Positions 989 through 18,299 of a stretch of DNA of 64,000 nt are shown in pieces. The notes below the pieces were generated by a model, which was given only the letters and a program-made list of their open reading frames with translations, ran no database searches and had not been told where the DNA came from. The DNA lies in assembly GCA_002050275.1 (NCBI GenBank), contig MWTB01000027.1, positions 17,225 through 81,224 of the forward strand, written 5' to 3'. The translations under genes and the position numbers were made by a program. Position 1 is the stretch's first letter, and each line of letters starts with the position of its first letter. Source of the stretch: Anaerolineae bacterium UTCFX1. Its GTDB lineage: Bacteria > Chloroflexota > Anaerolineae > Anaerolineales > Villigracilaceae.

Positions 989-1597
989 TCAGCGATTACA
1001 GATGAAGCGAGCGAGAGCCGCGTCGAACAACGCAGGCGCGGAAGATTCGTCAGGCGTATAGACTTTCCACGCAAAGACGCGGTCGCCGCAGGTCCATGCC
1101 GCTGCGCCGCCGTAAGGCAATAGCGACGTGGCGGCGGAGGCGATCGCAATGGAGATCACGTTCATGTTGCGAATTGACGTTATGCTAGGCGCGCCGAGAC
1201 GCGTATCTATTCCTTCTTCCAGAATTAAGTCGAGTAAAAAATTAGGATCAGACGCTCCGGGCGCTAATTGCCAGATTATCTGAATGAACAAATTGCCGCT
1301 GTAGGCGGCGAGCAGTCCTTGCGAATAACCGCTGGGCGCGGCTGGGTTTTGTTGCGCGCTGACATCGTAGAACGCCATGTCAACGGGATGCCCAATGCAA
1401 AATTGATATTCGCAGAACAAGCCGGCAAGGTTGAACGGAGTCGGGGAGGGGAGCGGCGGTGAGATGGGTGCGGGCGCGCTTGTTGGAAGCGCTGTCAGCG
1501 TAGAAGCGACCGCTAATGGTATTTGAACGGCGGCGTCTGGCTGGGGCGCACAAGCGGTTAGAATTATCAGAAGTAGAAGGATGGCTTTAATTTGCAT
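989..1597 (-). CDS. Hypothetical lipoprotein
   Basis: Internal Met gives MQIKAILLLLIILTAC, a signal peptide with lipobox Cys. I moved the start from 1624 to ATG 1597. TATAAT sits 6 nt upstream of this ATG and there is no SD. I recognised no family. Confidence 0.55.
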   Translation of the reverse strand: MQIKAILLLLIILTACAPQPDAAVQIPLAVASTLTALPTSAPAPISPPLPSPTPFNLAGLFCEYQFCIGHPVDMAFYDVSAQQNPAAPSGYSQGLLAAYSGNLFIQIIWQLAPGASDPNFLLDLILEEGIDTRLGAPSITSIRNMNVISIAIASAATSLLPYGGAAAWTCGDRVFAWKVYTPDESSAPALFDAALARFICNR

Positions 1598-1663
1598 GGC
1601 AAGATTATACAGGTTTTGGAACATTCTGGCTGGGGCGCGCGCCCCTGTTTTTAAGGAGCAGAA

Positions 1664-2395
1664 ATGAAACGTTTCGTATCGATCATCCTCTTTGTGGCGA
1701 CTCTCTCAGCGTGCGCTCGCACGACGAATCCGCAAGAGCAGTCTTTTATCCCGGTGGACGGTATACGCGCGACGCCCACTCCGGTGCATCTGACGGTAGC
1801 GCAACAAGCGGCTGTTTTACGGCTGGCGTTTAATCTGGGCGTAAGTATGGATAGAATCCGCGTCATCAGCGACGTTGAAACGGAATTTACCGATACGTGT
1901 TTGGGAGTCTCGCTCGAAGGTGTGATGTGCGCGCAAGCGATTACTCTCGGTAGGGCCATCACGCTGGAAACAGACGGCTTGGAGTTTGAATATCGTGTTA
2001 ATGCGGATGAAAGCCGCATGCTACCCGCCACTGTTGCGCTTGTATGGGAGCGGGATGGCGGCATCGCCGGGTTCTGCGATCGCGCGACCGTTTTCCTTTC
2101 GGGCGAAGTATATGGAAGCGATTGCCGTTCCGAGAACCCGGATGCGGCGGCAAAGTCGTTCGCAGACTTGATGACCGATGTGGAACGGACGCAATTCTTA
2201 ATCTGGGCGAAGCAATTTGGATCGTTAAGTCTGGACGATTCTGACCCGGCGAATGTGGTTGCAGACCGAATGACAGTCACGCTGCGGTTTTACGGCAAAG
2301 GAGATCAGAAACCGACTGAATCTGAACAACGCGCGCTGTTCGATATGGCGCAGAAGTTATACCAAGGTTATAGAGGCTTGCGTCAGATTCAATAA
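1664..2395 (+). CDS. Hypothetical lipoprotein
   Basis: MKRFVSIILFVATLSAC is a signal peptide plus lipobox. AAGGAG SD precedes the ATG. I recognised no family. Confidence 0.6.
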   Translation: MKRFVSIILFVATLSACARTTNPQEQSFIPVDGIRATPTPVHLTVAQQAAVLRLAFNLGVSMDRIRVISDVETEFTDTCLGVSLEGVMCAQAITLGRAITLETDGLEFEYRVNADESRMLPATVALVWERDGGIAGFCDRATVFLSGEVYGSDCRSENPDAAAKSFADLMTDVERTQFLIWAKQFGSLSLDDSDPANVVADRMTVTLRFYGKGDQKPTESEQRALFDMAQKLYQGYRGLRQIQ

Positions 2396-2426: not shown

Positions 2427-3689
2427 CTAGCGCTCGTTCTCCGCCTTGAGCGGCAGATAGCGAATGGCGAGACTGAACATGAGCAGCCAGTAGGAGATCA
2501 CTAGCGCAGCGACAGAAAACTCCACCCAAGTAGGCGCGTAGGAGTTAACGATAATGGTCGGCGTAAAGGGCGCGTATGTAGGAGCGGCGATTAACCCTGA
2601 GAAATTGTAATTCCAACGCATAAGGATGGCGGCGAAGATTGGTATGACTGCAAACGCCATCAGATAGCGGAAGTTTTTGATTGATTTCGCCGCGAGCAGC
2701 ACGGAGCCGGCGATGATGGGCAGCAGCGCCTGTCCGATCCAAAATGACAACGAGTAAGGAGCGACTGCGTTCAGCGCTTCAGTTTGCAGGCTGATGTTGC
2801 GATCGAACGAATAGTAATTGGTGACCGCCCAATCCCATAGGCGCAGATAGGTGAGCAGCAACGTCACGCCGCCGGAGAGCCGCGCAACGTCGTATAAAGC
2901 GCTATCTTCAACTGTTCCGGGGCGCATGACGCGGAAGACGATAACGCCTAAAAAGAATAACAGCGCCGTCCCGCCGCTCATTGCGGATAAAACGAATTGC
3001 ACTGGCGCGCTTTGATTGAACCAAACGCCGCGTCCCGAAATGACGGAGTATGTCGCGCCGAGCGAAGCTTGGTGGAGAAGCGATAACGTCAGCCCGATGA
3101 TGGCCAGGGCGGGGCCGGCTTTGTGCAGCCAGTGAGCGATCGTTCTAGCGGCAGAGGCGGCTTTTTTGACAACGGGAAATTTCTTATAGAGCGGATGATC
3201 CGTGAAGAAAGGGTGTTCCACAATGATCGGCGCCATTTCGGCGACCAGCACAGTCAGGTAAAGCACCACGCACATCGTCACTTCCCAGAGGAGCGAATGA
3301 GGCTGCCAGAATACGACCGGGTGCCAAAAACGGAGCGGTTGACCGAGATCGAACAACAGCACCATGCCGGCGGTGGAATATCCGAGGAATCCGAGCAAGA
3401 CCGCCAATTTTCCGATCGTTTCGAATCGTTTCAATCGCAGGAGGTAAACGATCACGCCGAATACGAACGCCGAGCCTCCCATAGCGATGGAGGAGAGATC
3501 AATAGAGATCCATAATCCCCAAGGGACGCGGTTGGAAAGCCCTGTTACTTGTAGACCGTCGCGCAATACGGTGAACGCCCCCACCAGCCCAAAGAGCAGC
3601 CCGGCGACCAGCAACCCCACCCAGTAGGGGAAGATGTCAACATTGTGTTTTCCGATTTGAAGTTTAGGACGATGAATCGTTGTTTGCAT
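2427..3689 (-). CDS. NrfD/PsrC/DsrP-like polytopic quinol-interacting membrane subunit
   Basis: About 420 aa, almost entirely hydrophobic helices. It abuts the stop of the Tat-FeS gene. Size and composition fit the 10-helix NrfD family. Start set at ATG 3689 (AAGGAAG SD 6 nt upstream). TTG 3695, which overlaps the upstream stop, is an alternative. Confidence 0.8.
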   Translation of the reverse strand: MQTTIHRPKLQIGKHNVDIFPYWVGLLVAGLLFGLVGAFTVLRDGLQVTGLSNRVPWGLWISIDLSSIAMGGSAFVFGVIVYLLRLKRFETIGKLAVLLGFLGYSTAGMVLLFDLGQPLRFWHPVVFWQPHSLLWEVTMCVVLYLTVLVAEMAPIIVEHPFFTDHPLYKKFPVVKKAASAARTIAHWLHKAGPALAIIGLTLSLLHQASLGATYSVISGRGVWFNQSAPVQFVLSAMSGGTALLFFLGVIVFRVMRPGTVEDSALYDVARLSGGVTLLLTYLRLWDWAVTNYYSFDRNISLQTEALNAVAPYSLSFWIGQALLPIIAGSVLLAAKSIKNFRYLMAFAVIPIFAAILMRWNYNFSGLIAAPTYAPFTPTIIVNSYAPTWVEFSVAALVISYWLLMFSLAIRYLPLKAENER

Positions 3690-3691
3690 GA

Positions 3692-4522
3692 TCAACTTCC
3701 TTGGAATGGATTTTCTGCCTTCGGATCGGGGGGGATGTAGTATACCCGCGGCTTTGTGCTGAGTTCCTCGCGCAGGCGGAGAGTGACTTTAGCGTTTGCC
3801 AACGCTTCGGAGATTGGGCTTTCGGAATCGTTCAAGTCGCCGAAAACGCGGGCAGATGTGGGGCAGGCGACCACGCAAGCGGGCGTCGCTTGCGAATCTA
3901 CGCCGGGCATAAGACCTCGCTCCAGACCCGCGTCAATGCGATGTGAACAAAACGTGCATTTTTCCACTACGCCGCGCGGGCGGTTGGGAACTTCAGGGTA
4001 TCCGAAAGTAGGAGATTGGGGGCTTAACTTGATGGGTTTCTTCCAGTTAAACACGCGCGCTTCGTATGGGCAGGCAATCTGGCAATAGCGGCAACCAATG
4101 CATAGGTCGTAATTCATCGCCACGATTCCGTCGGGACGCTTGTACGTCGCACCGACGGGGCAGACGTGTACGCACGGGGCTTCTTCGCAGTGCATACATG
4201 GGCGTGAAAGGAAGAACTCATCGCCTGATTGAGTCGTTTCTGTGGTGACTACGCAATAGCGCATATCTTCGGCGAGATTATTGACTGCGTCGCAAGCGAA
4301 CGTGCAATACTGACAGCCAATACAGCGATTAATATCAATCAACATGCCCCACTGATGTTTGCTTTCTTCTTCGGAGGCGGCGCGCGCGGCTATTTTTGCG
4401 GACGGGATGAATTGAGTTACGCCGGCGGCGGCGACCATTGCTCCAGCCAGTTTCAGAAAGTCGCGGCGGGTTGTTCCTGCGTTCTCTTCCGCATTTACCT
4501 GCTTGCTTTCATGTTCCGTCAT
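3692..4522 (-). CDS. Tat-exported 4x[4Fe-4S] ferredoxin-type subunit (NrfC/PsrB/DmsB-like)
   Basis: Twin-arginine signal TTRRDFLKLAG. Four Cys clusters: CIGCQYCTFAC, CMHCEEAPCVHVCP, CIGCRYCQIACP and CTFC...CVVACP. The 385-aa track ORF is an Arg-rich over-extension that overlaps the haem gene. Start set at ATG 4522, preceded by a GGAGAG SD. Confidence 0.9.
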   Translation of the reverse strand: MTEHESKQVNAEENAGTTRRDFLKLAGAMVAAAGVTQFIPSAKIAARAASEEESKHQWGMLIDINRCIGCQYCTFACDAVNNLAEDMRYCVVTTETTQSGDEFFLSRPCMHCEEAPCVHVCPVGATYKRPDGIVAMNYDLCIGCRYCQIACPYEARVFNWKKPIKLSPQSPTFGYPEVPNRPRGVVEKCTFCSHRIDAGLERGLMPGVDSQATPACVVACPTSARVFGDLNDSESPISEALANAKVTLRLREELSTKPRVYYIPPDPKAENPFQGS

Positions 4523-4545
4523 TGTTTTCTCTCCTCGCCCCTCAG

Positions 4546-5364
4546 TTAGGGTTTTTTCCTGTTTGCCGAGCCCGGTTCGCGACCGAATACCGCCCATGCG
4601 GCAACTCCGCCGATGATGACGCCCGCCAGCGCGTATACCCAGGCTGGCAGATGAACGCCGCCTTGCGGCGCGGTCGGGGGCGTTTGTTCCGCTGGAACTT
4701 GTGTGACCAGAGCCTTCGGGTTTGCCATTGCGTTCACTTCTACCCCGGCGTCGAGCATTTCTCTGGCTTGATGGAGATCGGTGTGGCAGTTGCTGCAAGT
4801 TGACGCTGATATGTTCATTGAGTGATCCTTGCCGTCGCCCATATGACAATTAACGCAACTGAGTCCCGCCGCGAAGTGAGTGGACTCGACCATATTGCGC
4901 ATCTCAGCCTTATGGCAATTTTCGCAGACAGTGCGCGCTTCAGATGCGACCTTAAGCCCCTGCGAATGCTGTTCATGGCAACTGACGCAATTTAAGCCGA
5001 CCGCTGCATGTTGGCTGGCAGCCATCTCGCTGGCGACGTTCTCTTTAGAGGCGCTGCCGTGACACACCAAACAAGTAGTCTCTTCGCTCTCCACGGTATA
5101 TTTTGCAGTTTCAGGATGCGTCCCCGCGCTATCGGCGAGTTTGTGGCAAACGGTGCAACTGACGTTGTGTTCGCGATGCGGGCTGCTCTCCCAGAGCGCT
5201 GCAGGCTGTTCATGACAACGTAGGCAATCTTTTAAGTCTTGCTGAGCCGCTTCCGCTGGCGCGATTGCAGAGACTGTTTGAGCGGACATGAGAACGAGCG
5301 CGGCGAAAACGGCAAATAGCGTAAGCGCTCCTGCAATAAAAAAAAGAGATTTTGTCGGTTTCAT
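4546..5364 (-). CDS. Heptahaem c-type cytochrome with N-terminal signal and C-terminal TM anchor
   Basis: Seven CXXCH motifs: CLRCH, CTVCH, CLVCH, CVSCH, CENCH, CVNCH, CSNCH. N-terminus is MKPTKSLFFIAGALTLFAVFAALVLMSAQTVSA. The C-terminal hydrophobic helix is HLPAWVYALAGVIIGGVAAWAVF. Start chosen at ATG 5364 (GGAG 10 nt upstream); ATG 5400 or 5373 are possible. Confidence 0.9.
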   Translation of the reverse strand: MKPTKSLFFIAGALTLFAVFAALVLMSAQTVSAIAPAEAAQQDLKDCLRCHEQPAALWESSPHREHNVSCTVCHKLADSAGTHPETAKYTVESEETTCLVCHGSASKENVASEMAASQHAAVGLNCVSCHEQHSQGLKVASEARTVCENCHKAEMRNMVESTHFAAGLSCVNCHMGDGKDHSMNISASTCSNCHTDLHQAREMLDAGVEVNAMANPKALVTQVPAEQTPPTAPQGGVHLPAWVYALAGVIIGGVAAWAVFGREPGSANRKKP

Positions 5365-5454
5365 TGTTTGCATTCTCCGTAAAAGAGCGGAATTCTTCAT
5401 TAACGATAGTATCGGTTAATGCCAACGCAAGTTAGTGTAGACTGTCATAAATTT

Positions 5455-5487
5455 GGACAATAAAAGTCATCACAGTCATTATTGTCC
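5455..5487. promoter_or_regulatory. Perfect 9-bp inverted repeat GGACAATAA-N15-TTATTGTCC upstream of the heptahaem operon
   Basis: Read directly from the sequence. It lies between the terminator of the decahaem gene and the heptahaem start. TGTCAT/AGTCAT half-site-like words occur nearby. It could be an operator or an RNA hairpin. Confidence 0.35.
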
Positions 5488-5493
5488 GATATG

Positions 5494-5523
5494 AAAAAGG
5501 CAACGTTTTTGCGCTGCCTTTTT
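5494..5523 (-). terminator. Intrinsic terminator after the decahaem gene
   Basis: Minus-strand RNA reads AAAAAGGCAGCGCAAAAACGUUGCCUUUUU. That gives a 7-bp stem (one G-U pair), a 6-nt loop and a U5 tail, 21 nt after the stop at 5544. Confidence 0.65.
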
Positions 5524-5543
5524 CGGTGGTTATCGAATGCGTC

Positions 5544-7733
5544 CTACGGCCGCGCGTAAGCGCTCACGTTGCCGCCGAGATCTTCGATCGAGTCGATCAG
5601 GAACTGGATGACGAACTTTGCGTTGTGAACGTACGCGCCCGGGTCTTTCTGAACGTACTGATAATTAAACGCGGCTCTCATAAGGCGAGGCGTCCATGCC
5701 GCGTAGCCTTTGCCGTTTGCGTCGAAGAAGTAGGGGTAGGCGTTTCCGTTATAGACGAGGAGACCGCCATGCGTTTCAGAGTACGTCTGCATCTGAGCGT
5801 AGAGGGCTTCAGCCAGCGTTGAGATTTCGCCGGAGATGCCTTCCTGCACATCGCTGTCGCCGTCGTAGTCCGCGTCGCTTTCGCGGATTAGAGCCGGGTT
5901 CGAAACGCCGTGACAGGTCTCGCAGGCTTTGATCTTAGGTTCGAGCGCGTGCACGTCATGGCAATCCTGGCATTTGTTGACCCTGCCATCCGGCTTAGCG
6001 TGCATAAATTCGCCAACGTACTGCTTGCCTTCGTAGAGATATGCGCCTTGTGCGTCTACACCGAACAGCGTCGAGCCAGCTGCAAAGTAATGAATGTTCT
6101 TGAAGCGGATCTTCGGATCGACTGTATCGAGGTCTTTGCCGCGTAAGGCGTTATTTACGCTAGTTGTAGATTCAAGCCCTTGGTGACAAGCGATACATAA
6201 ATTTGAATCATCGGGTAGATACTTTCCGTCTGCGTCTTTACCGCCGTAGCTGACTGTCTTTCCGCTGGGGAAAGTGACGGAATTAATTGCGTAACGATCA
6301 GGGAAGGAAGCTTCGTTGTGACAAGTAGAACATTGGAAGCCGTTGCTGGCGGGCAGCGCTCCCAGCCCGACGATTTGCGTCGTTCCATTTGCGGCGACGA
6401 CCGTTGTGCCGCCGTTTTGGATAAACTGCGGGAGCCCTTCGGCAGTGTGACATTTTGCGCAGGTATACGGCACGACGCCTCCGCCTTCCGCTTCGCCATC
6501 CCAATGACGGAACGGTTCGGTATTGCCGGCGAAGTGCCCCGCGTCGGTGCGCGCCAGTTTGACGACGTCGCCGCCGAGGTCGGCGATCGAGTCGTATAGC
6601 AGTTGGACGACATATTTATTACCGTGCGCGAACGCGCCCGTATCTTTGAGAGAAACCTGATAATTGTAGGCGGCTTTGAGCAGACGAGGCGTCCATGACG
6701 TGAAAGCGTTCGGGAAGATAGCTTCGCGTTCGTCTATCTCGCCGTTCGAGTTGATATCTTTGAAGAAGTACGGATAGGAGTGGTCGTCGTAGAGTAAGCC
6801 AGTGCCTACAGTTTGCGCGGCGTACGCTTGCATTTGAGCGTATAGAATCCTTTGCAAACCTTGGATTTCGTAATACATACCTTCGCGCGTATCGCCGTCG
6901 CCGTCATAATCGCTCAACGAGCTGACCATACGGATGGATTTAAGATCTTCTACCGCGCTTGCGCTGGGATGACATACCGAACATTCGCGCACTTTGACTT
7001 CCAACGTGTGCGAGTCGTGGCAGCCAATACAGGTGTCGTAGCCGGGCACATGATCGTTTTTCGAGTCGTAAGCCATGCCGTCGTATTGGTAGCCGCCGAG
7101 AGCCTTATTGCCGTACAGCGTCGCCGCCGCCGCGTAATAATGGATGCCGTTGAAGCCGAAAGCTTGATCATTGCCTTGATTGTCTTTGACGGGAGCGACG
7201 ACCGTATCAGGATGATCCGCTGCGCTGAAGAGCTCGATCTGTGCGTCTACGCTGATCTTCGATTCAAGCCCCTGATGACAGTCCATGCAGCGGGCGTCGG
7301 CGCCGGCGGTAATCGTCGCACCGGAAGGAAAGGTTACCGTTGTTCTTGAAACGGTGACCGAATTATGACAGGTTACGCATTGAATGCCTTGCGATTCAGC
7401 CGCCGGGACGGCGGCATCCACTTTATTTGCCGCGCTGCCATCTACGCCGAGGAAGTCTTGATAGCCTGCGCTGGTATGACATTTCGCACAATAGGTCGGA
7501 ACTTCGGCTGGGTCTTCTTCATCCCAGTGACGGAAGGGATAATTTAAAGCGTTCGCATGGCCGCTTTTTTCCCAATCTGCCAAAAAGGGCGTTTCAAGAA
7601 CGCTTGTAGGAGGAGGCGTTTCTACGGCAGTGGGTTCTTGAGGAGCGGCGGTTGGCGTGGCTCTGCAAGCGACGAGAATCGCAGTAAAAATGAGCGTTGC
7701 GCCTATAACGATTAAGATGCTTTTGAGTTTCAT
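5544..7733 (-). CDS. Decahaem c-type cytochrome lipoprotein built from two tandem pentahaem repeats
   Basis: Signal peptide plus lipobox (ILVAC). Ten CXXCH motifs: CAKCH, CVTCH, CMDCH, CIGCH, CSVCH, then CAKCH, CSTCH, CIACH, CQDCH, CETCH. The two halves align by eye (FRHWD...CAKCH...CHQGLES...DYDGD.D...YPYFF...WTPRL..AA.NYQ). GGAG SD lies 8 nt upstream of the ATG. Confidence 0.92.
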   Translation of the reverse strand: MKLKSILIVIGATLIFTAILVACRATPTAAPQEPTAVETPPPTSVLETPFLADWEKSGHANALNYPFRHWDEEDPAEVPTYCAKCHTSAGYQDFLGVDGSAANKVDAAVPAAESQGIQCVTCHNSVTVSRTTVTFPSGATITAGADARCMDCHQGLESKISVDAQIELFSAADHPDTVVAPVKDNQGNDQAFGFNGIHYYAAAATLYGNKALGGYQYDGMAYDSKNDHVPGYDTCIGCHDSHTLEVKVRECSVCHPSASAVEDLKSIRMVSSLSDYDGDGDTREGMYYEIQGLQRILYAQMQAYAAQTVGTGLLYDDHSYPYFFKDINSNGEIDEREAIFPNAFTSWTPRLLKAAYNYQVSLKDTGAFAHGNKYVVQLLYDSIADLGGDVVKLARTDAGHFAGNTEPFRHWDGEAEGGGVVPYTCAKCHTAEGLPQFIQNGGTTVVAANGTTQIVGLGALPASNGFQCSTCHNEASFPDRYAINSVTFPSGKTVSYGGKDADGKYLPDDSNLCIACHQGLESTTSVNNALRGKDLDTVDPKIRFKNIHYFAAGSTLFGVDAQGAYLYEGKQYVGEFMHAKPDGRVNKCQDCHDVHALEPKIKACETCHGVSNPALIRESDADYDGDSDVQEGISGEISTLAEALYAQMQTYSETHGGLLVYNGNAYPYFFDANGKGYAAWTPRLMRAAFNYQYVQKDPGAYVHNAKFVIQFLIDSIEDLGGNVSAYARP

Positions 7734-7899: not shown

Positions 7900-8349
7900 T
7901 TATGGATAGTTGGCGTAAATTTCCTGCGTCCCATCGGCGTAGAACAAGATCACATTAAAAGGTTCGGCTTCTACGCCGGCAACCTCCATACCGGGCGAGC
8001 CAATAGGCATTCCGCCGACGGCTATCCCAAGCGCGGCGGGTTGTTCTTGTAGCAGGCGTTTGATCTCTCTAACGGGAACATGTCCCTCGATCACATAGCC
8101 GTCTACGATAGCGGTATGGCAGGATTGAAGTTCAATGGGAACATGATATTTAACTTTGACGGGAGACATATCTCGCATATTTTCTTCCGTTGGCTTAAAC
8201 CCGTTGTCTGCGACGTAGTCAGCCCAGGCGCCGCAACAGCCGCAAGTGGGCGAGCGATAAATCGTGATGGGAATCCCGTCTGCGGTTTGGCTTGCACAAG
8301 CGCTCAACAAAACGGCAAGCGCAGCCAGCAGGCTGTAAAACTTTTTCAT
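7900..8349 (-). CDS. copG: DUF411/CopG-family periplasmic copper-binding lipoprotein
   Basis: Lipoprotein signal LLSAC. It carries the diagnostic SPTCGCCGAW (CxCC) motif, plus CHT and the MPIGSPGME motif typical of DUF411. AGGAG SD is present. Confidence 0.85.
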   Translation of the reverse strand: MKKFYSLLAALAVLLSACASQTADGIPITIYRSPTCGCCGAWADYVADNGFKPTEENMRDMSPVKVKYHVPIELQSCHTAIVDGYVIEGHVPVREIKRLLQEQPAALGIAVGGMPIGSPGMEVAGVEAEPFNVILFYADGTQEIYANYP

Positions 8350-8370
8350 ATCAACTCCTTGATCGTTATT

Positions 8371-9246
8371 TCAACTTAATAGAAATCCCACTCCGCTTCC
8401 AAGCGCGAAGAGTATAAACGTTAGTAAGGCGTTTGCTTGCGCAGGGATGATTTGAGCGGTTGTTTCTGGGTTCGCAAGCAATCGCTTAGACGCGGAAAAG
8501 GCTGGAACGACGGCGATTAGCCCCAGCCAGAGCGCGGGGGAAAATTGTAGAAGCGGCAGAAGCAGCGCAATCAGGAATGCGACCGCCATGATAGCGACGA
8601 ATAATCGGCTTGCAGGCTTTCTTCCCAAGAGCACCACGAGCGTTTGTTTCCCGGCGGTTTGATCTGCGTGAAAATCAGGGAATTCGTTGATAATCAGAAA
8701 CGCCGCGATGAAGACGCCCAGCAAAGCGGCGACCGAGATGATCGCAGACGATACGGTTCCGCGCTGGACGAGATACGTCCCCGCGCCGATCAGCGGCCCG
8801 TAGGACGCAGCAACTGCTAATTCGCCCATTCCGCGATATGATAGTTTCAAAGGCGGAGCATGATAGAAGAAAGCGAGCGCTATGCCGATAATTCCCAGCC
8901 ACAAAACGGACGGCTCTCGTTTGAGAAGGATAATGAGCCCTGTAATGCCGCCGATCGCATAACCAGCCAACGCAATGCCAGCCGTCTGACGTTTCGTCAA
9001 TAACTTGTCTACAAGGACGCGTTTGCCGCCCGAAAAGGGAGAGCGATCTTCGGGCATAACCGCTTGATCGTTCCCGCTGTTCCAATCGAATATTTCGCCG
9101 GAAGCGTTTTTAGCGATCTCGATGGCGAAGATTCCGATAAGCGTCGCTGCCAACCATCCGAAATGAAGCGTTCCATCTGACGCCGCCGCGCACGCGCCCA
9201 GAAATATAGACGCAAAAGACGCCAGAGAGATTTTCGGATCTGCCAA
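8371..9246 (-). CDS. UbiA/MenA-like polyprenyltransferase (N-terminus uncertain)
   Basis: Polytopic protein. Second Asp-rich motif is NEFPDFHAD. The first motif is the variant NASGEIFD (Glu in place of Asp). The frame is open upstream to 9315 with no ATG/GTG/TTG. AAGGAG at 9289-9294 sits 6 nt before ATA 9282, so the true start may be non-canonical. Confidence 0.75.
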   Translation of the reverse strand: MADPKISLASFASIFLGACAAASDGTLHFGWLAATLIGIFAIEIAKNASGEIFDWNSGNDQAVMPEDRSPFSGGKRVLVDKLLTKRQTAGIALAGYAIGGITGLIILLKREPSVLWLGIIGIALAFFYHAPPLKLSYRGMGELAVAASYGPLIGAGTYLVQRGTVSSAIISVAALLGVFIAAFLIINEFPDFHADQTAGKQTLVVLLGRKPASRLFVAIMAVAFLIALLLPLLQFSPALWLGLIAVVPAFSASKRLLANPETTAQIIPAQANALLTFILFALGSGVGFLLS

Positions 9247-9496
9247 CCTCCAGAACCCTTGCCAAAATGTAGATTTTATTATTGTCTTCTCCTTGTGAGA
9301 AAGAATCCCCGCATTCTAAGCGGACTTCGCAGCGAGGCCTTTTGAAAAACACGATGTTCATCGAAATGATAAATCTAACGATGGAAAACAATCTTCAATA
9401 ACGCAGGCGTAAATATTGTGGAGCGGAAAAGATCTTCCTCTGCTTGCGCGTAAGTTATGAATAGGATGAAGGAACGTTAGGCGATGACGCGACGTT

Positions 9497-10510
9497 TCAC
9501 ATCAGAAATTTACGGATCAATGTATCCGCCAACAACCCCAATAAGAAATAGGAACCGAAAGCGCGATTATACACAAACGATAGCGGGGCGAAGTATAGGG
9601 GCCAGCCGCCCTGTCCTTCGGGAAAATCTGCGGGACGTTCGGCGGGTTTGGGCTTAAGGAAGGCTGGAACAACTTGTCGTAAGCTGGGCAACGCCAACAG
9701 CGTGACTAGAAGCACGGGCGAGAAGACTTTGCTCCCAATCAGGTGAAAGATGATCAAATAGGGAAATATCATCATCCCAATGACCATGTAACGCGACGCT
9801 TTCTCGCCGATAACGACCGGCAGGGTGTGAATTCGTTTTTCTCGATCGATCGCAAGTTTGTCAATGTGCTTACCGAAGATAACCGTCGTTACGCCGAAAG
9901 CGTAGATTGAGCCGATGAGCGCCGCGTTCCAACTCCAAGCGCCGGTGATAACGTAATGACCGCCGCCGACCATGAGCGGACCCCAAACAAGGAAAACAGC
10001 GATCTCTCCAAGGGCGATATATTTCAAGGGCCAGGTGTAGAAGAGGAGTAAAAATGCGCCCGCACCCAATAGGAACCACGCTTGCGGCGCATAGCTGTTG
10101 CGCGCCATGAGGTAGAGTCCACAGACGAATGCGAGCGCGACCGTGAAGATAAAATAGGCGAGATGTTGTCGTTTTGTGAGAAGGTGGTTTTCAAGCGGAT
10201 GCGGACCGTACATAGTGCGAAAGTAATTCTTTTGGTCTACGCCGCGCGCATGGTCCACATAATCATTTAGGAGGTTATTGCTGGCGTGCGCCAAGACCAA
10301 ACCCAGCGTTACCGCGATCCAGGCGGAGAAATTGAACGAGGAGTCGCGCCAGGCTAACAGTCCCGCGAGAGCCGCAGACAGCACAGTCATCACAAGCACC
10401 GCCGCACGTGTCGAGATCAGCCAGCGTGAAATTGCGTCAAGCTGATCCCATTCTTCTTTTGAGACGTTTGGAATTACTGTAAGAGCCTTGCGCCACATGG
10501 ATACGTTCAT
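9497..10510 (-). CDS. UbiA/MenA-like polyprenyltransferase, long form (paralog of 18300..19355)
   Basis: NNLLNDYVDHARGVD matches the NxxxDxxD motif of MenA, and the second motif is HIDKLAID. The protein is polytopic. Start moved to ATG 10510 (MNVSMWRK) by alignment with the paralog. This also removes the overlap with the rrf2 gene. Confidence 0.8.
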   Translation of the reverse strand: MNVSMWRKALTVIPNVSKEEWDQLDAISRWLISTRAAVLVMTVLSAALAGLLAWRDSSFNFSAWIAVTLGLVLAHASNNLLNDYVDHARGVDQKNYFRTMYGPHPLENHLLTKRQHLAYFIFTVALAFVCGLYLMARNSYAPQAWFLLGAGAFLLLFYTWPLKYIALGEIAVFLVWGPLMVGGGHYVITGAWSWNAALIGSIYAFGVTTVIFGKHIDKLAIDREKRIHTLPVVIGEKASRYMVIGMMIFPYLIIFHLIGSKVFSPVLLVTLLALPSLRQVVPAFLKPKPAERPADFPEGQGGWPLYFAPLSFVYNRAFGSYFLLGLLADTLIRKFLM

Positions 10511-10535
10511 GAATCGTCCTTTTCTGCTGATTTGA

Positions 10536-10931
10536 TTAAATGAATTGCGCAAATGTTGTGTTGCGTAATTGCGTCGTTAGGGCGTCTTGTGCTTCGCGCC
10601 AAACAAGTTGCATGGCGCAGTTTTCTTCGAGCGCGCACAGACCGACTCGGTCAACGCAGACGTTGAGTTGAACGGGCCCGTCAATTGCTTCGATGACTTC
10701 GAGCATGGTGATTTGGCTGGGATCGCGCGCGAGAGCGATGCCTCCTCGCGCGCCGCGAGAGGTGTGGAGGAGCCCCGCAATTGAGAGTTGCGAGATGATT
10801 TTCGCTAGAAACGAAGAGGGAATGCATTGCGCTTTTGCGATCTGACTGGTGGAGATGCGCTTACCTTGGCTGGCGCGCGTAAGGTGTAAGATCGCCCGCA
10901 AAGCGTAATCGGCTTGACGTGTAATTTGCAT
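10536..10931 (-). CDS. Rrf2-family transcriptional regulator with a Cys triad (possible Fe-S sensor)
   Basis: MQITRQADYALRAILHL...SSFLAKIISQL...TSRGARGG is a typical Rrf2 wHTH. CVDRVGLCALEENC gives C-x7-C-x5-C spacing as in IscR/NsrR. Start set at ATG 10931. Confidence 0.88.
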   Translation of the reverse strand: MQITRQADYALRAILHLTRASQGKRISTSQIAKAQCIPSSFLAKIISQLSIAGLLHTSRGARGGIALARDPSQITMLEVIEAIDGPVQLNVCVDRVGLCALEENCAMQLVWREAQDALTTQLRNTTFAQFI

Positions 10932-11102
10932 GTCTGCCTTTCTCTCATTTTGGCATGAGTTGCTCAACCTGTGTGAAGGTTTGAGCCTTGTTTGACGATA
11001 ATTCGGACAATTAACGTCCTTGATGCGTAGTGTATGGAAGAATGGAATAGTAGAGAAGTGATGGATGTCATCAATGTAGAGGAAGAATCGCGTTTGGTAG
11101 GC

Positions 11103-11131
11103 TTGACAAGCGACTGACAGCGCGATATAGT
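11103..11131 (+). promoter_or_regulatory. Sigma-70-type promoter of the csoR-cop operon
   Basis: TTGACA (11103-11108), a 17-nt spacer, then TATAGT (11126-11131), read directly from the sequence. Confidence 0.7.
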
Positions 11132-11166
11132 ATCCCTACCCCCTAGGGGGGGGGTAGAAGCGGGAT
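11132..11166. promoter_or_regulatory. CsoR-type operator (C-tract/G-tract inverted repeat) overlapping the transcription start
   Basis: Sequence is ATCCC TACCCCC TA GGGGGGGGG TA gaagc GGGAT. The inner TACCCCC..GGGGG..TA resembles the pseudo-palindromic C/G-tract operators known for CsoR at copZA-type promoters. The outer ATCCC/GGGAT arms extend the dyad. Confidence 0.7.
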
Positions 11167-11198
11167 AGAATCCGCTGTCAAAGAAGAAAGAGGAACAT

Positions 11199-11468
11199 GT
11201 GGACACGAAGGCTACGCTCCGACGTTTGAGAACGGTTGAAGGGCATTTACGCGGCATTATTCGTATGGTCGAAGAAGACGCGTATTGCATTGACATAATT
11301 CGTCAGATTCAAGCGGTGGATGGGGCATTGAGTAAGGTTAGCGGTCAGATCCTTGAAAACCACTTAAATTCATGCGTCATTACTGCGATTCAAGGGAATG
11401 ACAAGGAGGAGCGCCAGCGCGTATTGAAAGAAATTGCCGAAGTGTTTGATATGTCTACAAAAGTGTAG
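11199..11468 (+). CDS. csoR: CsoR-family copper-sensing transcriptional repressor
   Basis: RLRTVEGHLRGIIRMVEED.YCIDIIRQI.AV..AL is the CsoR/RcnR fold. The C-H-C ligand set is present (YC...HLNSC). GTG start with AGAGGAA SD. Confidence 0.9.
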   Translation: MDTKATLRRLRTVEGHLRGIIRMVEEDAYCIDIIRQIQAVDGALSKVSGQILENHLNSCVITAIQGNDKEERQRVLKEIAEVFDMSTKV

Positions 11469-11560
11469 CGCAGCTTGTGCGTAAAAAGTAGGATTTATCT
11501 GCGAATGGATAATTCCGCAGTTAATCGCAGGAAATTTTAATAACCCTAAAGGAGAAAACT

Positions 11561-11779
11561 ATGACTACCGTTACTTATTCCGTTCCCGCCATGCATTGTA
11601 ATCATTGCACGCACACTATTGAAATGGAAGTGGGCGAGTTGGCTGGCGTGCAATCTGTTAAGGCGAATCTCGATGCGAGAAAGGTTGAGATTATGTTCGA
11701 CGCTCCCGCTGACGAAACGCAGATCAAGGCGTTGTTGGCTGAACTGAATTACCCGGCGGAAGGGCTGATCACTCTGTAA
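11561..11779 (+). CDS. copZ: Heavy-metal-associated (HMA) copper chaperone
   Basis: 72 aa with an MHCNHC (MxCxxC) motif and betaalphabetabetaalphabeta-type length. AAGGAG SD. Confidence 0.9.
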   Translation: MTTVTYSVPAMHCNHCTHTIEMEVGELAGVQSVKANLDARKVEIMFDAPADETQIKALLAELNYPAEGLITL

Positions 11780-11820
11780 AAAAGGGATAAATATCCCCTT
11801 GTTGTTTTGTAAGAGGCATA

Positions 11821-13938
11821 ATGAACGACGCCCACAAAACGCATAAAGACTATCATCATGAAGAGATGAAACACGATTCGCATGCGCAGCCAGATGTGAA
11901 GCCGTCTCATTCCGCCCACTTGGGACACGAAATGCACGATTCGGCTTCTGCACAAAATAAACATGCGAGCCATACAGATCATAGCGGACATGAAGACATG
12001 TTCCGCAAACGGTTCTGGGTCTCGTTGTTGTTGAGCATTCCTGTTTTGCTTTACACGCCCATGCTCCAGATGTGGTTCGGGTTCAAAATGCCTGAATTCA
12101 TGGGCAGTCAGTGGGTGGCGGCGCTGTTCGCCGTGATCGTTTTCATCTATGGCGGCGTGCCGTTCATTCAAATGGCTCTCCCAGAGATTCGCAACCGCCA
12201 GCCTGGCATGATGCTGTTGATCTCGCTGGCGATCTCGGTCTCGTTTGTGTACAGCCTCGCCGCGTTGTTCTTCAACTTGGGTGAAGGGTTCTTCTGGGAA
12301 CTGGTCACGCTGATTGACATCATGCTCTTGGGGCATTGGATCGAGATGCGCAGTGTCCGTCAGGCTTCGGGCGCGTTGAACGCGTTGGCAAAGTTGATGC
12401 CCGACACAGCCGAACACATCATGCCCGACGGCAGTGTCCACACGATGCCAGCCTCTTCGTTGAAGTTGAATGATCTCGTGCTTGTCCGCCCTGGGGCGAG
12501 TATCCCTGCCGATGGTGTGGTGGCAGACGGCGAGTCTGATGTGAACGAAGCGATGATCACGGGCGAGTCGCTTCCTGTGAAAAAAACTGTCGGCGCGAAA
12601 GTGATCGCGGGCAGTATCAACCAAGATGGAAGTCTGCGCGTCCGCGTATCAGCCATCGGAGAACAAACCGCGCTGGCTGGCATCATGCGCCTGGTTCGTG
12701 ATGCGCAACAAAGTAAATCGAACACGCAAATATTAGCCGATAAAGCGGCGGGTTGGCTTTTCTATCTCGCCATCGGCGTTGCCGCGCTCACTGCTATTTT
12801 ATGGACGATCGCTCTGGGCTTCGACCTCTTCACGTTGGAGCGCGTTGTCACCGTGTTGGTGATTGCGTGTCCGCACGCGCTGGGGCTGGCTGTCCCGCTC
12901 GTCGTGGCGATCAGCACCACGTCCGCCGCGCAGAACGGGATCTTAGTCCGCAACCGTTTGGCGCTCGAAGCCGCGCGTGAAATTGACGTGGTGATCTTCG
13001 ACAAAACTGGCACGCTCACGAAAGGCGAACAGGGCGTGGTTGCCGTCAAAACCAACGGCGTGGATGAAGACCACGCTCTTGCCCTCACCGCAGCTGTTGA
13101 GGCGGACTCGGAGCACATCATCGCCCGCGCGATCCGCGATGCGGCGAAAGAGAAAAATTTGCAACTGCCAGTCGTCTCCGATTTTGAAGCCATCAAGGGA
13201 CGCGGCATCCGCGCCAAACACAACGGGAAGGATTTGTGGGTGGGCGGTCCGCGCCTGTTGGAGATGCTCGACATTCAACCCGATTCGGCAATTTCGGAAT
13301 TCGCTTCTTCCTCAGGGACAAAGGGTCAGACCGTCGTCTATCTGATCGTTGATGGGAAGATTTTCGCCGCGCTTGCATTGGCAGATGTGATTCGTCCTGA
13401 AAGTTACGAAGCCATCAAAAAACTTAATGAGATGAACGTGCAAGTCGCCATGCTGACGGGTGACAGCAAAGATGTCGCCAAAGCCGTCGCCGATGAACTT
13501 GGAATCAAATTGTATTTTGCCGAAGTATTGCCTGAACATAAAGATGAAAAAGTGATCGAACTTCAGAAGCAAGGAAAGAAAGTTGCCATGGTCGGCGATG
13601 GTGTCAACGATGCGCCCGCTCTCACTCGCGCCGACGTAGGCATTGCAATCGGCAGTGGCACCGACGTGGCTGTTGAATCCGCTGGGATCATCTTGGTGAA
13701 AAGTAATCCGTTGGATGTGGTCAAGATATTCAAATTGAGCCGCGCCAGTTACAACAAAATGATCCAAAACCTGATCTGGGCGTCGGGCTACAACGTTGTT
13801 GCTTTGCCGTTAGCCGCAGGCATCCTTGCCTCGGCTGGGATATTGCTTTCGCCAGCCGTAGGCGCACTGTTGATGTCGGTGAGCACCATCGTCGTGGCGA
13901 TCAACGCCCAATTACTGCGGCGCGTAAATTTAAATTAA
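11821..13938 (+). CDS. copB: P1B-type copper ATPase, CopB-like (His-rich N-terminus, CPH motif)
   Basis: The first 60 aa are His-rich and there is no HMA domain. The TM6 motif is [12 protein letters not shown] (CPH). DKTGTLT, MLTGD and [10 protein letters not shown]-type signatures are present. Confidence 0.92.
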
Positions 13939-13960
13939 CAACAGAAATAAGGAGTAAAGT

Positions 13961-14131
13961 ATGACAACAACTACAGTGCATGATCCTGTTTGCCACATGG
14001 ATATTGACCCTGAAACTGCCGCTGGCGCCTCCGAGTACAAAGGACAGACTTATTATTTTTGTTCGCTTGGCTGCAAGAAATCTTTCGAAAAAGATCCTGA
14101 GAAATATTTGAATAACAGCGAACAGGCTTAA
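13961..14131 (+). CDS. YHS/TRASH-domain small metal-binding protein (56 aa, absent from the ORF track)
   Basis: Translated by hand: MTTTTVHDPVCHMDIDPETAAGASEYKGQTYYFCSLGCKKSFEKDPEKYLNNSEQA. It shows the YHS pattern DPVC.M.......Y.G..YYFCS..C...F..DP..Y. AAGGAG SD lies 7 nt upstream, and the ORF begins 22 nt after the copB stop. Confidence 0.85.
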   Translation: MTTTTVHDPVCHMDIDPETAAGASEYKGQTYYFCSLGCKKSFEKDPEKYLNNSEQA

Positions 14132-14391
14132 CACCACGCCGCGCCTCTGTTATGGCTGGGAGCGTGGAAGAGCTGCTTGATAAACAGCAAGCCGCGACCG
14201 CAAAAACGGCATGTGAAGAAAGGCTGACAGGTCCCGCGAGCTATTCGGGCGCGATGCATCGTGGCGAGCGAATATATTTTTATACGGATATTTATTTGCG
14301 CGTTTCCGAACAAAAACCCGCCGCGTTTTTATGGCAGGCGAGATTGAGCATCCCTTGAATGAAGATTGAACGAATGTAGAAAGCAAATACC

Positions 14392-16815
14392 ATGACCGAT
14401 ACAAAACAACTTACCCTTCCTATCACAGGTATGACCTGCGCCAACTGCGTCGCGACAGTAGAGCGCAACCTTAAGAAATTAGACGGCGTACAGACCGCCG
14501 TTGTTAACTTATCGTCTGAGCGTGCAACGGTGGACTTTGACGCGACAAAGCTGGCGTTGCCTGATTTTATCGCGCGCGTTAATCGCGCAGGATACGGCGT
14601 AGCGACGGGCGAAGCGGACCTCGTGATTAAGCGCATCGCAGACGATAATGATGCACGCCGACTCGAAGCGGCGTTGCTCAAATTGGACGGCGCGCTCGAA
14701 GCGCAAGCATCGTACGCCAGTGGAAAGGCGCGCGTCAAATATGTTCCAACCATTGTCAGCCAATCGGAGATTCGGGCGGCGGTGACGCAGGCGGGTTTTG
14801 AGGCGATGGAACTTGGCGGAGACGCCGAAGATGCTGAAGCCATTGCGCGTGAGCATGAAGTTAATGAACAGTTTCGGATGTTCGTTATCGGTTTAATCTT
14901 TACCGCGCCGTTGTTCGTCTTTTCCATGCTGCGCGATTTCAATTTATTGGGGCATTGGGCGCACGCGCCCTGGGCGAATTATGCGATGATGATCGTCGCT
15001 GCGCCGGTTCAGTTCTATGTGGGCTGGCAGTATTACGTCGGCGCGTACAAATCTTTGCGCAACGGTTCCGCCAATATGGACGTCCTTGTTGCGATGGGCT
15101 CTACGGTCGCCTACGTTTATTCCATATTTATTGCCTTCGGAATAATTCCAGGACATGTCTATTTCGAGACTGCCGCAGTGATCATCACGTTGATCCGGCT
15201 TGGAAAATATTTGGAAGCGCGCGCCAAAGGACGCACCTCTGAAGCGATCAAGAAGTTGATGGGTCTTCGCGCTAAAACAGCGCGCGTCATTCACAATGGG
15301 GAGGAAGTTTCCGTTCCGGTGGACGATGTTCGCGTCGGCAACGTCGTCCTTGTGAAGCCCGGTGAGATGATACCGGTAGACGGCGTGGTCATCGAAGGAA
15401 AATCCAGCGTGGACGAATCCATGCTGACAGGCGAGTCGTTGCCGGTGGAAAAAAAGCCAGGCGACGCAGTCGTTGGCGCGACGTTGAACAAACTTGGATT
15501 GCTGAAATTCGAGGCGACGAAAGTCGGTAAAGAGACCGCGTTGGCGCGCATTATCAAGCTTGTGGAAGATGCGCAAGGCAGTAAGGCGCCGATTCAAAGA
15601 CTTGCCGATCAAGTTTCCGCTGTGTTCGTACCAGTGGTAATCGTCATCGCCGCGCTGACCTTTGCAGGTTGGTATTTCCTCGGCGCTCCGGGCGACCTGA
15701 CTCGCGCACTAATCAATATGGTCGCCGTGCTCGTAATTGCATGTCCATGCGCGATGGGGCTTGCCACGCCTACGGCGGTGATGGTAGGGACGGGCAAAGG
15801 CGCGGAGATGGGCGTGCTGTTCAGAAATAGCGAGGCGTTGGAGCGCGCGGGAAAAGTGAACATTGTGGCGCTGGATAAAACTGGAACGCTTACAAAGGGC
15901 CAGCCTGCCGTGACGGATATTGTGTCTGCCGGTGCGGATTGGAACGAAGATAAAATCCTCTATATGGCGGCTTCCGCAGAAACAGGCAGCGAACACGGAT
16001 TAGGCGAGTCTATCGTAGCCGCTGCAACCGCGCGCGATATTCGGCTGAGCGAAGCGTCGGATTTTAAAGCGTTGACCGGTATGGGCATTTCGGCAAGCGT
16101 GGACGGTCGGCGAGTCCTGATCGGCAACCTGCGCTTGATGAACGCGGAAGATATTTTCGTCCAGGACATTCACGCGGAGATGGAGCGGCTTCAGACGGAG
16201 GCGAAAACCCCAATGATCGTTGCCGTAGACAATGAGGTCGCAGGCGTGGTCGCCGTGGCGGATACGTTAAAAGAACATTCAAAAGACGCGATTGGCGAAT
16301 TGCATCGCATGGGTTTGAAGGTGGCGATGATCACGGGCGACAACCATAAGACGGCTGAAGCGATTGCAAAACAGGTGGGCATTGACCGAACGCTAGCAGA
16401 GGTGTTGCCGGAAGGGAAGGCAGACGAAGTAAAGAAATTGCAAACAATGGACAATGGTCAACGCTCTGCGATCTCTGTAGTTGCCATGGTTGGCGACGGC
16501 ATCAATGATGCACCGGCGCTCGCTCAGGCGGACGTTGGCATCGCGATCGGCACAGGAACGGACGTTGCCATGGCGGCGGCGCCTGTGACTTTGATGAGCG
16601 GCGACTTGCGCGGCATAGCGAAAGCAATCCGCTTATCGAGAAAGACATTATCAACGATCAAACAAAACTTGTTCTGGGCGTTCTTCTATAACGTGATCCT
16701 AATTCCCGCCGCCGCACTGGGTTGGTTGAACCCAATGCTCGCCGCCGGCGCGATGGCTTTTAGCAGCGTCTTTGTTGTGACGAATAGTTTGAGGCTAAAA
16801 TCGTATACAGGTTAA
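14392..16815 (+). CDS. copA: P1B-1 copper-exporting ATPase CopA (CPC motif)
   Basis: The N-terminal HMA carries GMTCANC. A second HMA-like repeat lacks CxxC (IADDND). [12 protein letters not shown] (CPC), DKTGTLT, ITGD and VGDGINDAP are present. Confidence 0.95.
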
Positions 16816-18212: not shown

Positions 18213-18299
18213 GTTGAGAGTATAATCACGGCGTGCGATCGGCGATGGACTATGCCGAAAGACGAAAACTATCAGATCTTTTATGTCAGGAGAATCATA

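Follow-up and report, generated by a model that had tools for sequence, protein, structure and literature searches.

Quinol dehydrogenases of the NrfCD type can feed extracellular electron transfer (EET), as illustrated by SirCD of Shewanella, which replaces CymA, and by CbcSTU of Geobacter (PMC11434368), and the Qrc complex of sulfate reducers is a menaquinone reductase fed by cytochrome c3 (PMC6303296). Among surface cytochromes, OcwA of Thermincola potens is the cell-surface terminal reductase of a Gram-positive bacterium, a cell-wall protein composed of a globular haem domain and a C-terminal three-helix bundle of the NrfA type (PMC6703420), and OmhA of Carboxydothermus ferrireducens is a surface cytochrome at the cell-mineral interface (PMC7829351). 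EET has already been proposed for multihaem-rich Anaerolineales (bioRxiv 10.1101/2021.08.23.457424; PMC7399161), and Ardenticatena, a cultured member of the same phylum, performs it in both the anodic and the cathodic mode (PMC5808234). The earlier literature on multihaem cytochromes of the Anaerolineales guesses at EET, and no defined pathway was found in the papers searched. The order ranks among the most abundant bacteria of wastewater plants, anammox reactors, aquifers and sediments; cultured representatives are few. Here we analyze a cluster of four genes, encoding a predicted decahaem lipoprotein, a heptahaem cytochrome, a ferredoxin and an NrfD-family protein, in a stretch of 64,000 nucleotides from Anaerolineae bacterium UTCFX1 (contig MWTB01000027.1, positions 17,225 to 81,224; hereafter the window). 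We assign a probability of about 0.8 to the reading of this cluster as a conduit that leads from the quinone pool to multihaem cytochromes and has no catalytic subunit of its own.

The quinol module and its cytochrome partners

Inspection of the open reading frames (ORFs) of the window finds four same-direction genes on the minus strand at 2427-7733, with the features listed here.

5544-7733, minus strand: decahaem lipoprotein (predicted), 729 aa, with 10 CXXCH motifs.
6549-7595, minus strand: module 1 of the decahaem protein (residues 47-395), with five CXXCH motifs, five distal histidines, a DYDGDGD loop and a helical bundle.
5547-6548, minus strand: module 2 of the decahaem protein (residues 396-729), with five CXXCH motifs and five distal histidines.
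4546-5364, minus strand: heptahaem cytochrome c, 272 aa counted from M13, with a signal peptide and a C-terminal transmembrane anchor.
3692-4522, minus strand: ferredoxin of the NrfC/DsrO/QrcC/ActB2 type, exported by twin-arginine translocation (Tat), 276 aa, with four cysteine clusters.
2427-3695, minus strand: NrfD-family polytopic membrane subunit with a putative (mena)quinol site, 420-422 aa, PF03916.

An earlier note on this DNA had described four co-directional minus-strand genes, encoding a lipid-anchored protein of 729 aa with 10 CXXCH motifs, a protein of about 272 aa with seven such motifs and a C-terminal transmembrane helix, a Tat-signal protein with four cysteine motifs and a polytopic NrfD/PsrC-like protein of about 420 aa, and all of these descriptions have held. 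The ten motifs and the lipobox of the largest protein agree with it. The heptahaem ORF is open from 5400 (284 aa), and independent gene callers on identical contigs set its start at M13 (nucleotide 5364) and its length at 272 aa; the protein starts with a signal peptide, carries seven CXXCH motifs and ends in a transmembrane helix that is kept in 13/13 orthologues. Both gene callers and related loci place the true start of the ferredoxin at the ATG at 4522, giving 276 aa. A longer ORF of 385 aa (3692-4849), with a TTG start inside the heptahaem gene and a 108-residue Arg/Ser-rich extension, was discarded as an artefact. The heptahaem and ferredoxin genes are separated by 23 nt, and the stop codon of the latter overlaps the start of the NrfD gene; because of this spacing, the three genes are very probably co-translated. 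A scan for promoters and terminators gave counts not above those of shuffled sequence and was uninformative.

The haem-binding motifs are the most conspicuous trait of the cluster. Fewer than 0.01 CXXCH motifs per protein are expected by chance, as estimated from residue frequencies, against the 17 found in about 1,000 residues, and since no other ORF of the 64-kb window carries more than one, their density lies beyond chance. The heptahaem cytochrome has weak family hits only (DmsE/GSU2203-type, c3/c7), and a sequence search of the PDB with it returned generic weak hits. The ferredoxin has a twin-arginine signal (TIGR01409, PF10518), a Fer4_11 domain and 16 cysteines in four clusters. Against NCBIfam it exceeds the cutoff of DsrO (221 bits; cutoff 200) and scores 172 bits with QrcC, 163 with TtrB and 150 with NrfC, and its best solved relative is the C-terminal domain of ActB in Alternative Complex III (ACIII; 6f0k_B, residues 793-1023, E 3e-44). 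The membrane subunit matches PF03916 at E 6.6e-16 (profile positions 2-302 of 313), has about 9-10 hydrophobic segments and gives an alignment that covers nearly the whole QrcD model (positions 15-401 of 408, 185 bits; cutoff 570), with HmcC (125 bits) and HybB as the next best. Neither its single sequence nor a 27-sequence profile found a solved relative in the PDB, ActC and ActF included.

Judged by these matches, the operon carries an NrfCD-type quinol-interacting module, composed of an NrfD membrane protein and an adjoining Tat-exported ferredoxin with four clusters. This module belongs to none of the Qrc, Hmc, Dsr, ACIII, Nrf or molybdopterin reductase complexes, because their defining partners are all absent. 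The earlier note had interpreted the cluster as an NrfCD quinol module whose sole visible outlet is a set of c-type haems and which lacks a catalytic partner within several kb, and families, motifs and neighbourhood all support that interpretation. No catalytic subunit, be it a molybdopterin protein, NrfA, an ActB-sized protein, an oxidase or another reductase, occurs in the window, where large ORFs were annotated up to 48 kb, or in the 7 kb past its left edge. Within the same limits there is no hydrogenase or formate dehydrogenase near the cluster. A molybdopterin partner of the complex iron-sulfur molybdoenzyme type (Psr/Ttr/Arr/Dms) was looked for among the annotated large ORFs, in those 7 kb and among the recurrent neighbours at 80 related loci, and rejected; the longest window ORF of at least 200 aa has 807 aa.

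The decahaem lipoprotein and its putative haem ligands

The CXXCH motifs of the decahaem protein lie at residues 82, 119, 149, 235, 251, 425, 468, 513, 588 and 604. Its one N-terminal hydrophobic segment ends at the lipobox LVAC (C23), with residues 1-23 as the signal (MKLKSILIVIGATLIFTAILVAC), and both A22 and C23 are invariant in 43 homologues; a signal peptide with a lipobox cysteine predicts a bacterial lipoprotein. The lipid-anchor cysteine is followed by a Pro/Thr/Ala-rich linker of some 25 residues (about 24-50), the lowest-confidence part of the structure model, and the remainder of the protein consists of two tandem pentahaem modules, each with a helical bundle, that are 40% identical to each other (E 1e-73). 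Just before the long helix of each module there is an acidic loop, DYDGDGD at residues 275-281 (nt ~6891-6911) and DYDGDSD at 622-628 (nt ~5850-5870); in the alignment of 43 sequences D-Y-D-G-D-G is invariant in module 1, as are D622 and D624-G625-D626 in module 2. These loops look like the DxDxDG calcium-binding loop, and NrfA enzymes carry Ca sites too.

The conservation of histidines outside the haem motifs bears directly on the question of a catalytic site. In an hmmalign alignment of 197 modules, taken from representatives at ≤~50% identity, every module retains all five CXXCH motifs together with exactly five additional, near-invariant histidines, which in the window protein are H59, H198, H228, H242 and H370 in module 1 and H400, H548, H578, H595 and H703 in module 2. 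The same five are invariant across 62 sequences comprising both window modules and 60 single-module proteins, named alphaproteobacterial ones among them. H228/H578 is replaced in only ~9% of modules, and a sixth histidine, in the motif FRHWD, is D or N in ~18% of the modules in which the position aligns (31/176). The heptahaem cytochrome shows a matching pattern, with exactly seven conserved extra histidines for seven haems, and all 17 motifs of the cluster are CXXCH, with no CXXCK or other variant among them. One conserved extra histidine per haem (10/10 and 7/7) argues for bis-His electron transfer and against an enzyme site, and all 17 haems would thus be low-spin electron-transfer centres with two histidine ligands. 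With five near-invariant non-motif histidines for the five haems of each module, an open-coordinate (catalytic) haem does not appear to be indicated. Hidden Markov models (HMMs) of NrfA and of octahaem cytochromes do not reach significance on the decahaem protein.

An AlphaFold2 model of the whole protein was mediocre (predicted local distance difference test score, pLDDT, 68), gave weaker Foldseek hits and was replaced by a model of module 2 alone, built without haems on a more diverse alignment. In this confident model (pLDDT 84; predicted template modelling score 0.88) a haem domain is followed by a three-helix bundle. Its top Foldseek match in the PDB is OcwA (6i5b; probability 0.97, E 0.014, TM-score 0.43, ~15% identity), followed by OmhA (6qvm) and then by NrfA entries at E 0.1 or weaker, and the resemblance to OcwA and OmhA is remote and suggestive only. 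At the sequence level the module profile weakly finds NrfA (3ubr, E 2e-4), a match driven largely by the haem motifs. The comparison of the large cytochrome with characterized enzyme families, which the earlier note had called for, thus yields a remote NrfA likeness and OcwA as the best fold match, and does not refute the reading of the cluster as a conduit.

The family to which this protein belongs is large and conserved. More than 4,600 homologues were found among the scored candidates of a 5.8-billion-protein collection, with identities of 63-75% across more than 100 clusters, and a library of clusters at 50% identity yielded 1,389 matching clusters at E ≤0.001, of which 361 reached E ≤1e-30. 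The organism-named hits among those listed are metagenome-assembled genomes (MAGs) of Anaerolineales/Chloroflexota, in which the protein is annotated as 'hypothetical' or 'cytochrome c3 family', and the MAGs of the family include some from strictly anoxic sites (digesters, deep mines, Zodletone spring). No dedicated Pfam or NCBIfam model matches the protein, which is hit by generic c3/c7 models only, and a PDB search with its single sequence gave no usable match; the label 'Polyheme membrane-associated cytochrome c', which one Geobacter study uses, seems to be generic. Relatives have one module (~360 aa, 5 haems), two modules or three (15-18 haems). Longer members, the family representatives P0121, P0139 and P0267, have 15-18 haems and up to 1,284 aa, and their haem counts therefore identify the pentahaem module as a repeat unit of variable copy number. 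At the other extreme, single-module relatives are found in Rhodobacterales genera such as Limimaricola, Tranquillimonas and Salipiger, two of them in named species. The genes (~360 aa) of Limimaricola hongkongensis and Tranquillimonas alkanivorans lie at L085 8001-9089 and L086 8001-9071, where L denotes a locus of our comparison; one of the two proteins aligns with window module 2 at 40% identity, and in both of these genera the single-module gene divergently adjoins an Na+-NQR operon (nqrA-F and apbE).

Genomic context and proposed role

Comparison of 80 related genome loci, in which recurrent neighbours were annotated and non-recurrent single ORFs left out, identifies the decahaem gene as the constant element, with neighbours that vary among three recurring arrangements. 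The arrangement of the window (decahaem, 7-haem cytochrome, Fe-S protein and NrfD) is found in ~17 loci, with NrfD 69-98% identical. A commoner one, seen in most other Anaerolineales, combines the decahaem with a nonahaem cytochrome (390 aa), an FdnI/HydC-like cytochrome b (284 aa) and a heptahaem resembling NrfH (565 aa), while the opposite strand carries a paralogous set made up of NrfD, Fe-S protein, octahaem and a Cys-rich membrane protein of 114 aa (for instance L001, 12406-19636); some islands encode more than 50 haems. The pair of nonahaem and cytochrome b has what we take to be the domain make-up of Geobacter CbcL, split over two genes. Both sets are united in one island in L033, L039, L043 and L057. 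Counting within 10 kb in the 39 loci whose sequence extends 8 kb or more to either side of the decahaem gene, a quinol-interacting module is present in 36/39, comprising NrfCD with a 7/8-haem cytochrome in 27, nonahaem with FdnI-like cytochrome b in 23 and NrfH-like heptahaem in 17, and several such modules often stand together at one locus. Other recurrent neighbours are CcmE, CcmF, CcmH, a CcmG-like protein, a HisKA_3/GerE two-component system, transporters and housekeeping genes. The earlier note had also asked whether orthologous clusters always sit next to a terminal reductase, and none was found among the annotated recurrent neighbours of the decahaem gene in the 80 loci, a result that does not refute the conduit. 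Large neighbour clusters considered as catalytic candidates turned out to be CcmF, ATP-binding cassette (ABC) transporter parts, a class-I cytochrome c and a cytochrome b fusion. The last, a 706-aa protein with a cytochrome b C-terminal (PetD-like) domain and at least five class-I cytochrome c domains (L058, 8624-10741; also L035, L045 and L082), looks like an unusual component of a bc-type complex.

The window itself is ~97% identical at the protein level to the MAGs Anaerolineales bacterium H5_CFX6 and Anaerolineaceae bacterium HKUEN02. One flank of the cluster holds a DUF411 lipoprotein, MenA-like UbiA paralogues, an Rrf2 regulator, a CsoR/RicR-like repressor and two P1B-type ATPases and continues, out to 48 kb, with EamA, ABC-transporter and housekeeping genes; the other holds two lipoproteins and MazG and leads, past the window edge, into a ribosomal-protein/rpoA cluster. 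The copper-homeostasis genes form an island at 7900-16815, directly upstream of the decahaem gene, in which the DUF411 lipoprotein carries a CGCC motif and the ATPases are a His-rich P1B protein of 705 aa and one of 807 aa, with an HMA domain in the identical contig L087. This island is syntenic with the cytochrome cluster in the closest relatives only (L003-L011, L087-L089), and on account of such lineage-specific synteny the copper and MenA-like genes were rejected as members of the system. Three MenA-like UbiA prenyltransferase paralogues (8371-9246, 9497-10552 and 18252-19355) all score under equivalog cutoffs; relatives such as L003 encode, in the intervals between these paralogues, a UbiE-type methyltransferase and two small membrane proteins of the Sdh_cyt type, an arrangement that may represent a variant naphthoquinone pathway beside a quinol-oxidizing complex. 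Immediately downstream of NrfD, two predicted lipoproteins with no family match (989-1624, minus strand; 1664-2395, plus strand) adjoin the cluster in the closest relatives only (46-97% identity).

We give roughly even odds to the proposal that this conduit serves outward EET, carrying electrons from menaquinol to the outer face of the cell envelope. In its favour count the four-gene operon with no catalytic subunit, the conserved extra histidines, the quinol modules that recur beside the decahaem gene, the weak fold match to OcwA and OmhA, the SirCD and CbcSTU precedents, the anoxic habitats of family MAGs and the EET proposed for Anaerolineales and performed by Ardenticatena. In the route that we infer, the order of the subunits, the bis-His ligation, the surface exposure, the outward direction and the nature of the acceptor would be as follows. 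Menaquinol would be bound and oxidized by NrfD at the outer side of the cytoplasmic membrane, and its electrons would pass to the four Fe-S clusters of the Tat-exported ferredoxin, from there to the seven bis-His haems of the membrane-anchored cytochrome and on to the ten bis-His haems of the lipoprotein. Standing on its ~25-residue Pro/Thr-rich tether in or at the cell wall, the decahaem would then deliver them to Fe(III)/Mn(IV) minerals, humics, shuttles, electrodes or neighbouring cells. A decahaem placed at the wall would face the medium because the Anaerolineales are thought to lack an outer membrane; this group of Chloroflexota is considered monoderm (Sutcliffe 2011 as cited in PMC7399161; PMC5808234). 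Oxidation of quinol at the outer face would also release protons outside, and thereby contribute to a proton gradient as one arm of a redox loop.

Several observations weigh against the outward route. The decahaem lipoprotein may be unable to cross the wall on its short tether, the flanking genes concern copper homeostasis and are uninformative on iron or manganese, and NrfD scores best against QrcD, which belongs to a reducer, not an oxidizer, of menaquinone. The fold matches are weak (E 0.014, TM-score 0.43) and come from a haem-free model, and in literature searches by family name and for Ca. Villigracilis cytochromes the decahaem family was uncharacterized. Single-module relatives exist in Rhodobacterales genera that are marine aerobes and for which, to our knowledge, metal reduction is not known. 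Finally, the host lineage is reported as a facultative aerobe or denitrifier with cytochrome c oxidase (PMC11653643), and the conduit could for that reason feed ordinary terminal enzymes encoded elsewhere. Given the facultatively aerobic hosts, the relatives adjoining Na+-NQR and an NrfD closest to QrcD, an internal respiratory role or electron uptake would both be compatible with the data.

An internal role would make the cluster a hub that substitutes for complex III, with NrfCD and the heptahaem acting as a menaquinol:cytochrome c oxidoreductase, much like a pared-down ACIII, and the decahaem distributing or storing electrons for an oxidase or for nitrite, NO or N2O reductases. It would fit the respiration of O2, NO2- and N2O reported for the hosts (PMC11653643), the kinship of the ferredoxin with ActB, the bc-type cytochrome b fusions near four loci, the Na+-NQR neighbours in Rhodobacterales and the conservation of the decahaem (63-75% in more than 100 clusters), which suits a core function. 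Yet 17 haems and a tethered lipoprotein far exceed what reaching an oxidase requires, no oxidase or N-oxide reductase is among the annotated recurrent neighbours in 80 loci, alternative quinol modules accumulate beside one decahaem as they do in EET organisms, and MAGs of the family come from strictly anoxic habitats, all of which leads us to regard such a hub as unlikely. Electron uptake, for its part, would turn the cluster into a Qrc-like menaquinone reductase, in which NrfD reduces menaquinone electrogenically with electrons from Fe(II), reduced humics, a cathode, a syntrophic partner or a periplasmic-type hydrogenase or formate dehydrogenase. The proteins that NrfD and the ferredoxin resemble (QrcD end to end, then HmcC and HybB; DsrO and QrcC) all belong to complexes that feed the quinone pool, Qrc is electrogenic in precisely that direction (PMC6303296), and Ardenticatena performs cathodic as well as anodic EET (PMC5808234). 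However, the scores of QrcD (185 against 570) and QrcC (172 against 400) fall far under their cutoffs, QrcB is absent, and neither the window nor its extension has a hydrogenase or formate dehydrogenase nearby. Furthermore, NrfD modules are reversible, so their resemblance leaves the direction unfixed, and heterotrophic Anaerolineales would face a surplus of electrons, not a deficit, which makes uptake improbable in our view.

It is very unlikely, on the other hand, that the decahaem is itself an enzyme, namely a duplicated NrfA/OcwA-like reductase for soluble substrates (nitrite, hydroxylamine, sulfite, tetrathionate or peroxide, for example) that would be supplied with electrons from quinol by NrfCD and the heptahaem, as in NrfABCD. 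The remote fold and profile similarity to the NrfA family (E 2e-4) and the slow reduction of nitrite by OcwA (PMC6703420) speak in its favour, and the partly conserved FRHWD motif and the DxDGDGD loop could make a pocket and a Ca site. Against it stand the missing CXXCK, the lack of significance of the NrfA and octahaem HMMs and the five conserved distal histidines for the five haems of each module: H228/H578 is replaced in only ~9% of modules, and it is the histidine of FRHWD that is lost in ~18% (31/176).

Beyond this locus, we tentatively suggest, as somewhat more doubtful than probable, that the tandem pentahaem lipoproteins constitute an unrecognized, widespread class of cell-surface terminal cytochromes, all-bis-His wires of one, two or three modules that descend from the NrfA/OcwA fold and plug onto interchangeable quinol dehydrogenases in monoderm Anaerolineales. 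Were this so, the filamentous Anaerolineales of activated sludge, anammox granules, aquifers and sediments would be electroactive, and the current might run either way or pass from cell to cell along a filament. EET by multihaem Anaerolineales was already known as a hypothesis, and so were NrfCD-plus-cytochrome modules. What is new is the decahaem as a tandem of NrfA/OcwA-like modules whose haems, from their conserved histidines, appear to be all bis-His, together with its very wide and conserved distribution and its pairing with interchangeable quinol modules, in a family without a characterized, modelled or solved member. The locus is a compact and testable candidate, in which four genes link a quinol entry point to 17 haems without an enzyme. 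If outward EET were confirmed, it would provide a genetic marker for electroactivity in the Anaerolineales, extend the OcwA/OmhA type of monoderm EET beyond the Firmicutes and give structural and bioelectrochemical studies a new modular multihaem fold to work on; if the cluster were instead an internal hub, it would explain the link from menaquinol to terminal oxidases in these organisms.

Comparison with described systems

In composition, the cluster resembles Geobacter CbcSTU and Shewanella SirCD, with which it shares an NrfD-type subunit, an NrfC/DsrO-like ferredoxin and the lack of a catalytic subunit, CbcSTU having a c-type cytochrome as well. The comparison with the Geobacter Cbc type drawn in the earlier note is hence apt for subunit composition (PMC11434368), these systems being compared by description only. 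The cluster differs from both in its 7-haem, C-terminally anchored cytochrome, in the decahaem lipoprotein encoded in the operon and in a host thought to be monoderm. The best HMM matches point to Qrc and to Hmc/Nhc of sulfate reducers, which likewise bring a multihaem cytochrome and a ferredoxin together with NrfD at the outer face. Assignment to QrcABCD was nonetheless rejected, since the window and its extension have no gene for the molybdopterin-like QrcB and both QrcC (172 against a cutoff of 400) and QrcD (185 against 570) score below cutoff. Compared with Hmc, the 16-haem HmcA and HmcDEF are absent, and HmcB and HmcC fall below equivalog cutoffs.

With ACIII the cluster shares the wiring of quinol to c-type haems through a multihaem subunit with a transmembrane anchor, and a ferredoxin similar to the C-terminal domain of ActB. 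It was rejected as an ACIII because the ferredoxin, of 276 aa and without the molybdopterin-like domain of the fused ActB (about 1,000 aa), aligns only to ActB 793-1023, and because there is a single NrfD gene, where ACIII has two NrfD-like subunits (ActC and ActF), and no ActD, monohaem ActE or ActF. The 17 haems found here also contrast with the six of ACIII, which uses 5 + 1. NrfABCD/NrfHA was discarded for want of a CXXCK motif and for its scores (NrfC 150 against a cutoff of 378, NrfD 26 against 348), and so was DsrMKJOP, in which DsrO exceeds its cutoff (221 against 200) but DsrP does not (44 against 350) and no DsrMKJ lies nearby.

The decahaem lipoprotein invites two further comparisons. 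Like MtrC, OmcA and UndA, which are terminal EET cytochromes, it is a lipoprotein of ~700 aa, by prediction, with 10 haems in two pentahaem halves. Membership in that family was rejected: TIGR03507 gives no hit, the inter-haem regions are predicted to be alpha-helical and not beta-barrel, and MtrC is absent from the Foldseek hits; in contrast to the Shewanella MtrC type, a porin/MtrAB partner is also absent here. With OcwA and OmhA the protein would have in common a globular domain with several haems and, behind it, a short NrfA-type helical bundle, as well as an extracytoplasmic location and a host without outer membrane. OcwA has nine haems, two of them open-coordinate, and OmhA has 11, whereas the decahaem is composed of two pentahaem modules in which the putative sixth ligands are all conserved; and whereas OmhA is an S-layer protein (6qvm title) and OcwA a cell-wall protein (PMC6703420), the decahaem is predicted to be held by a lipid anchor.

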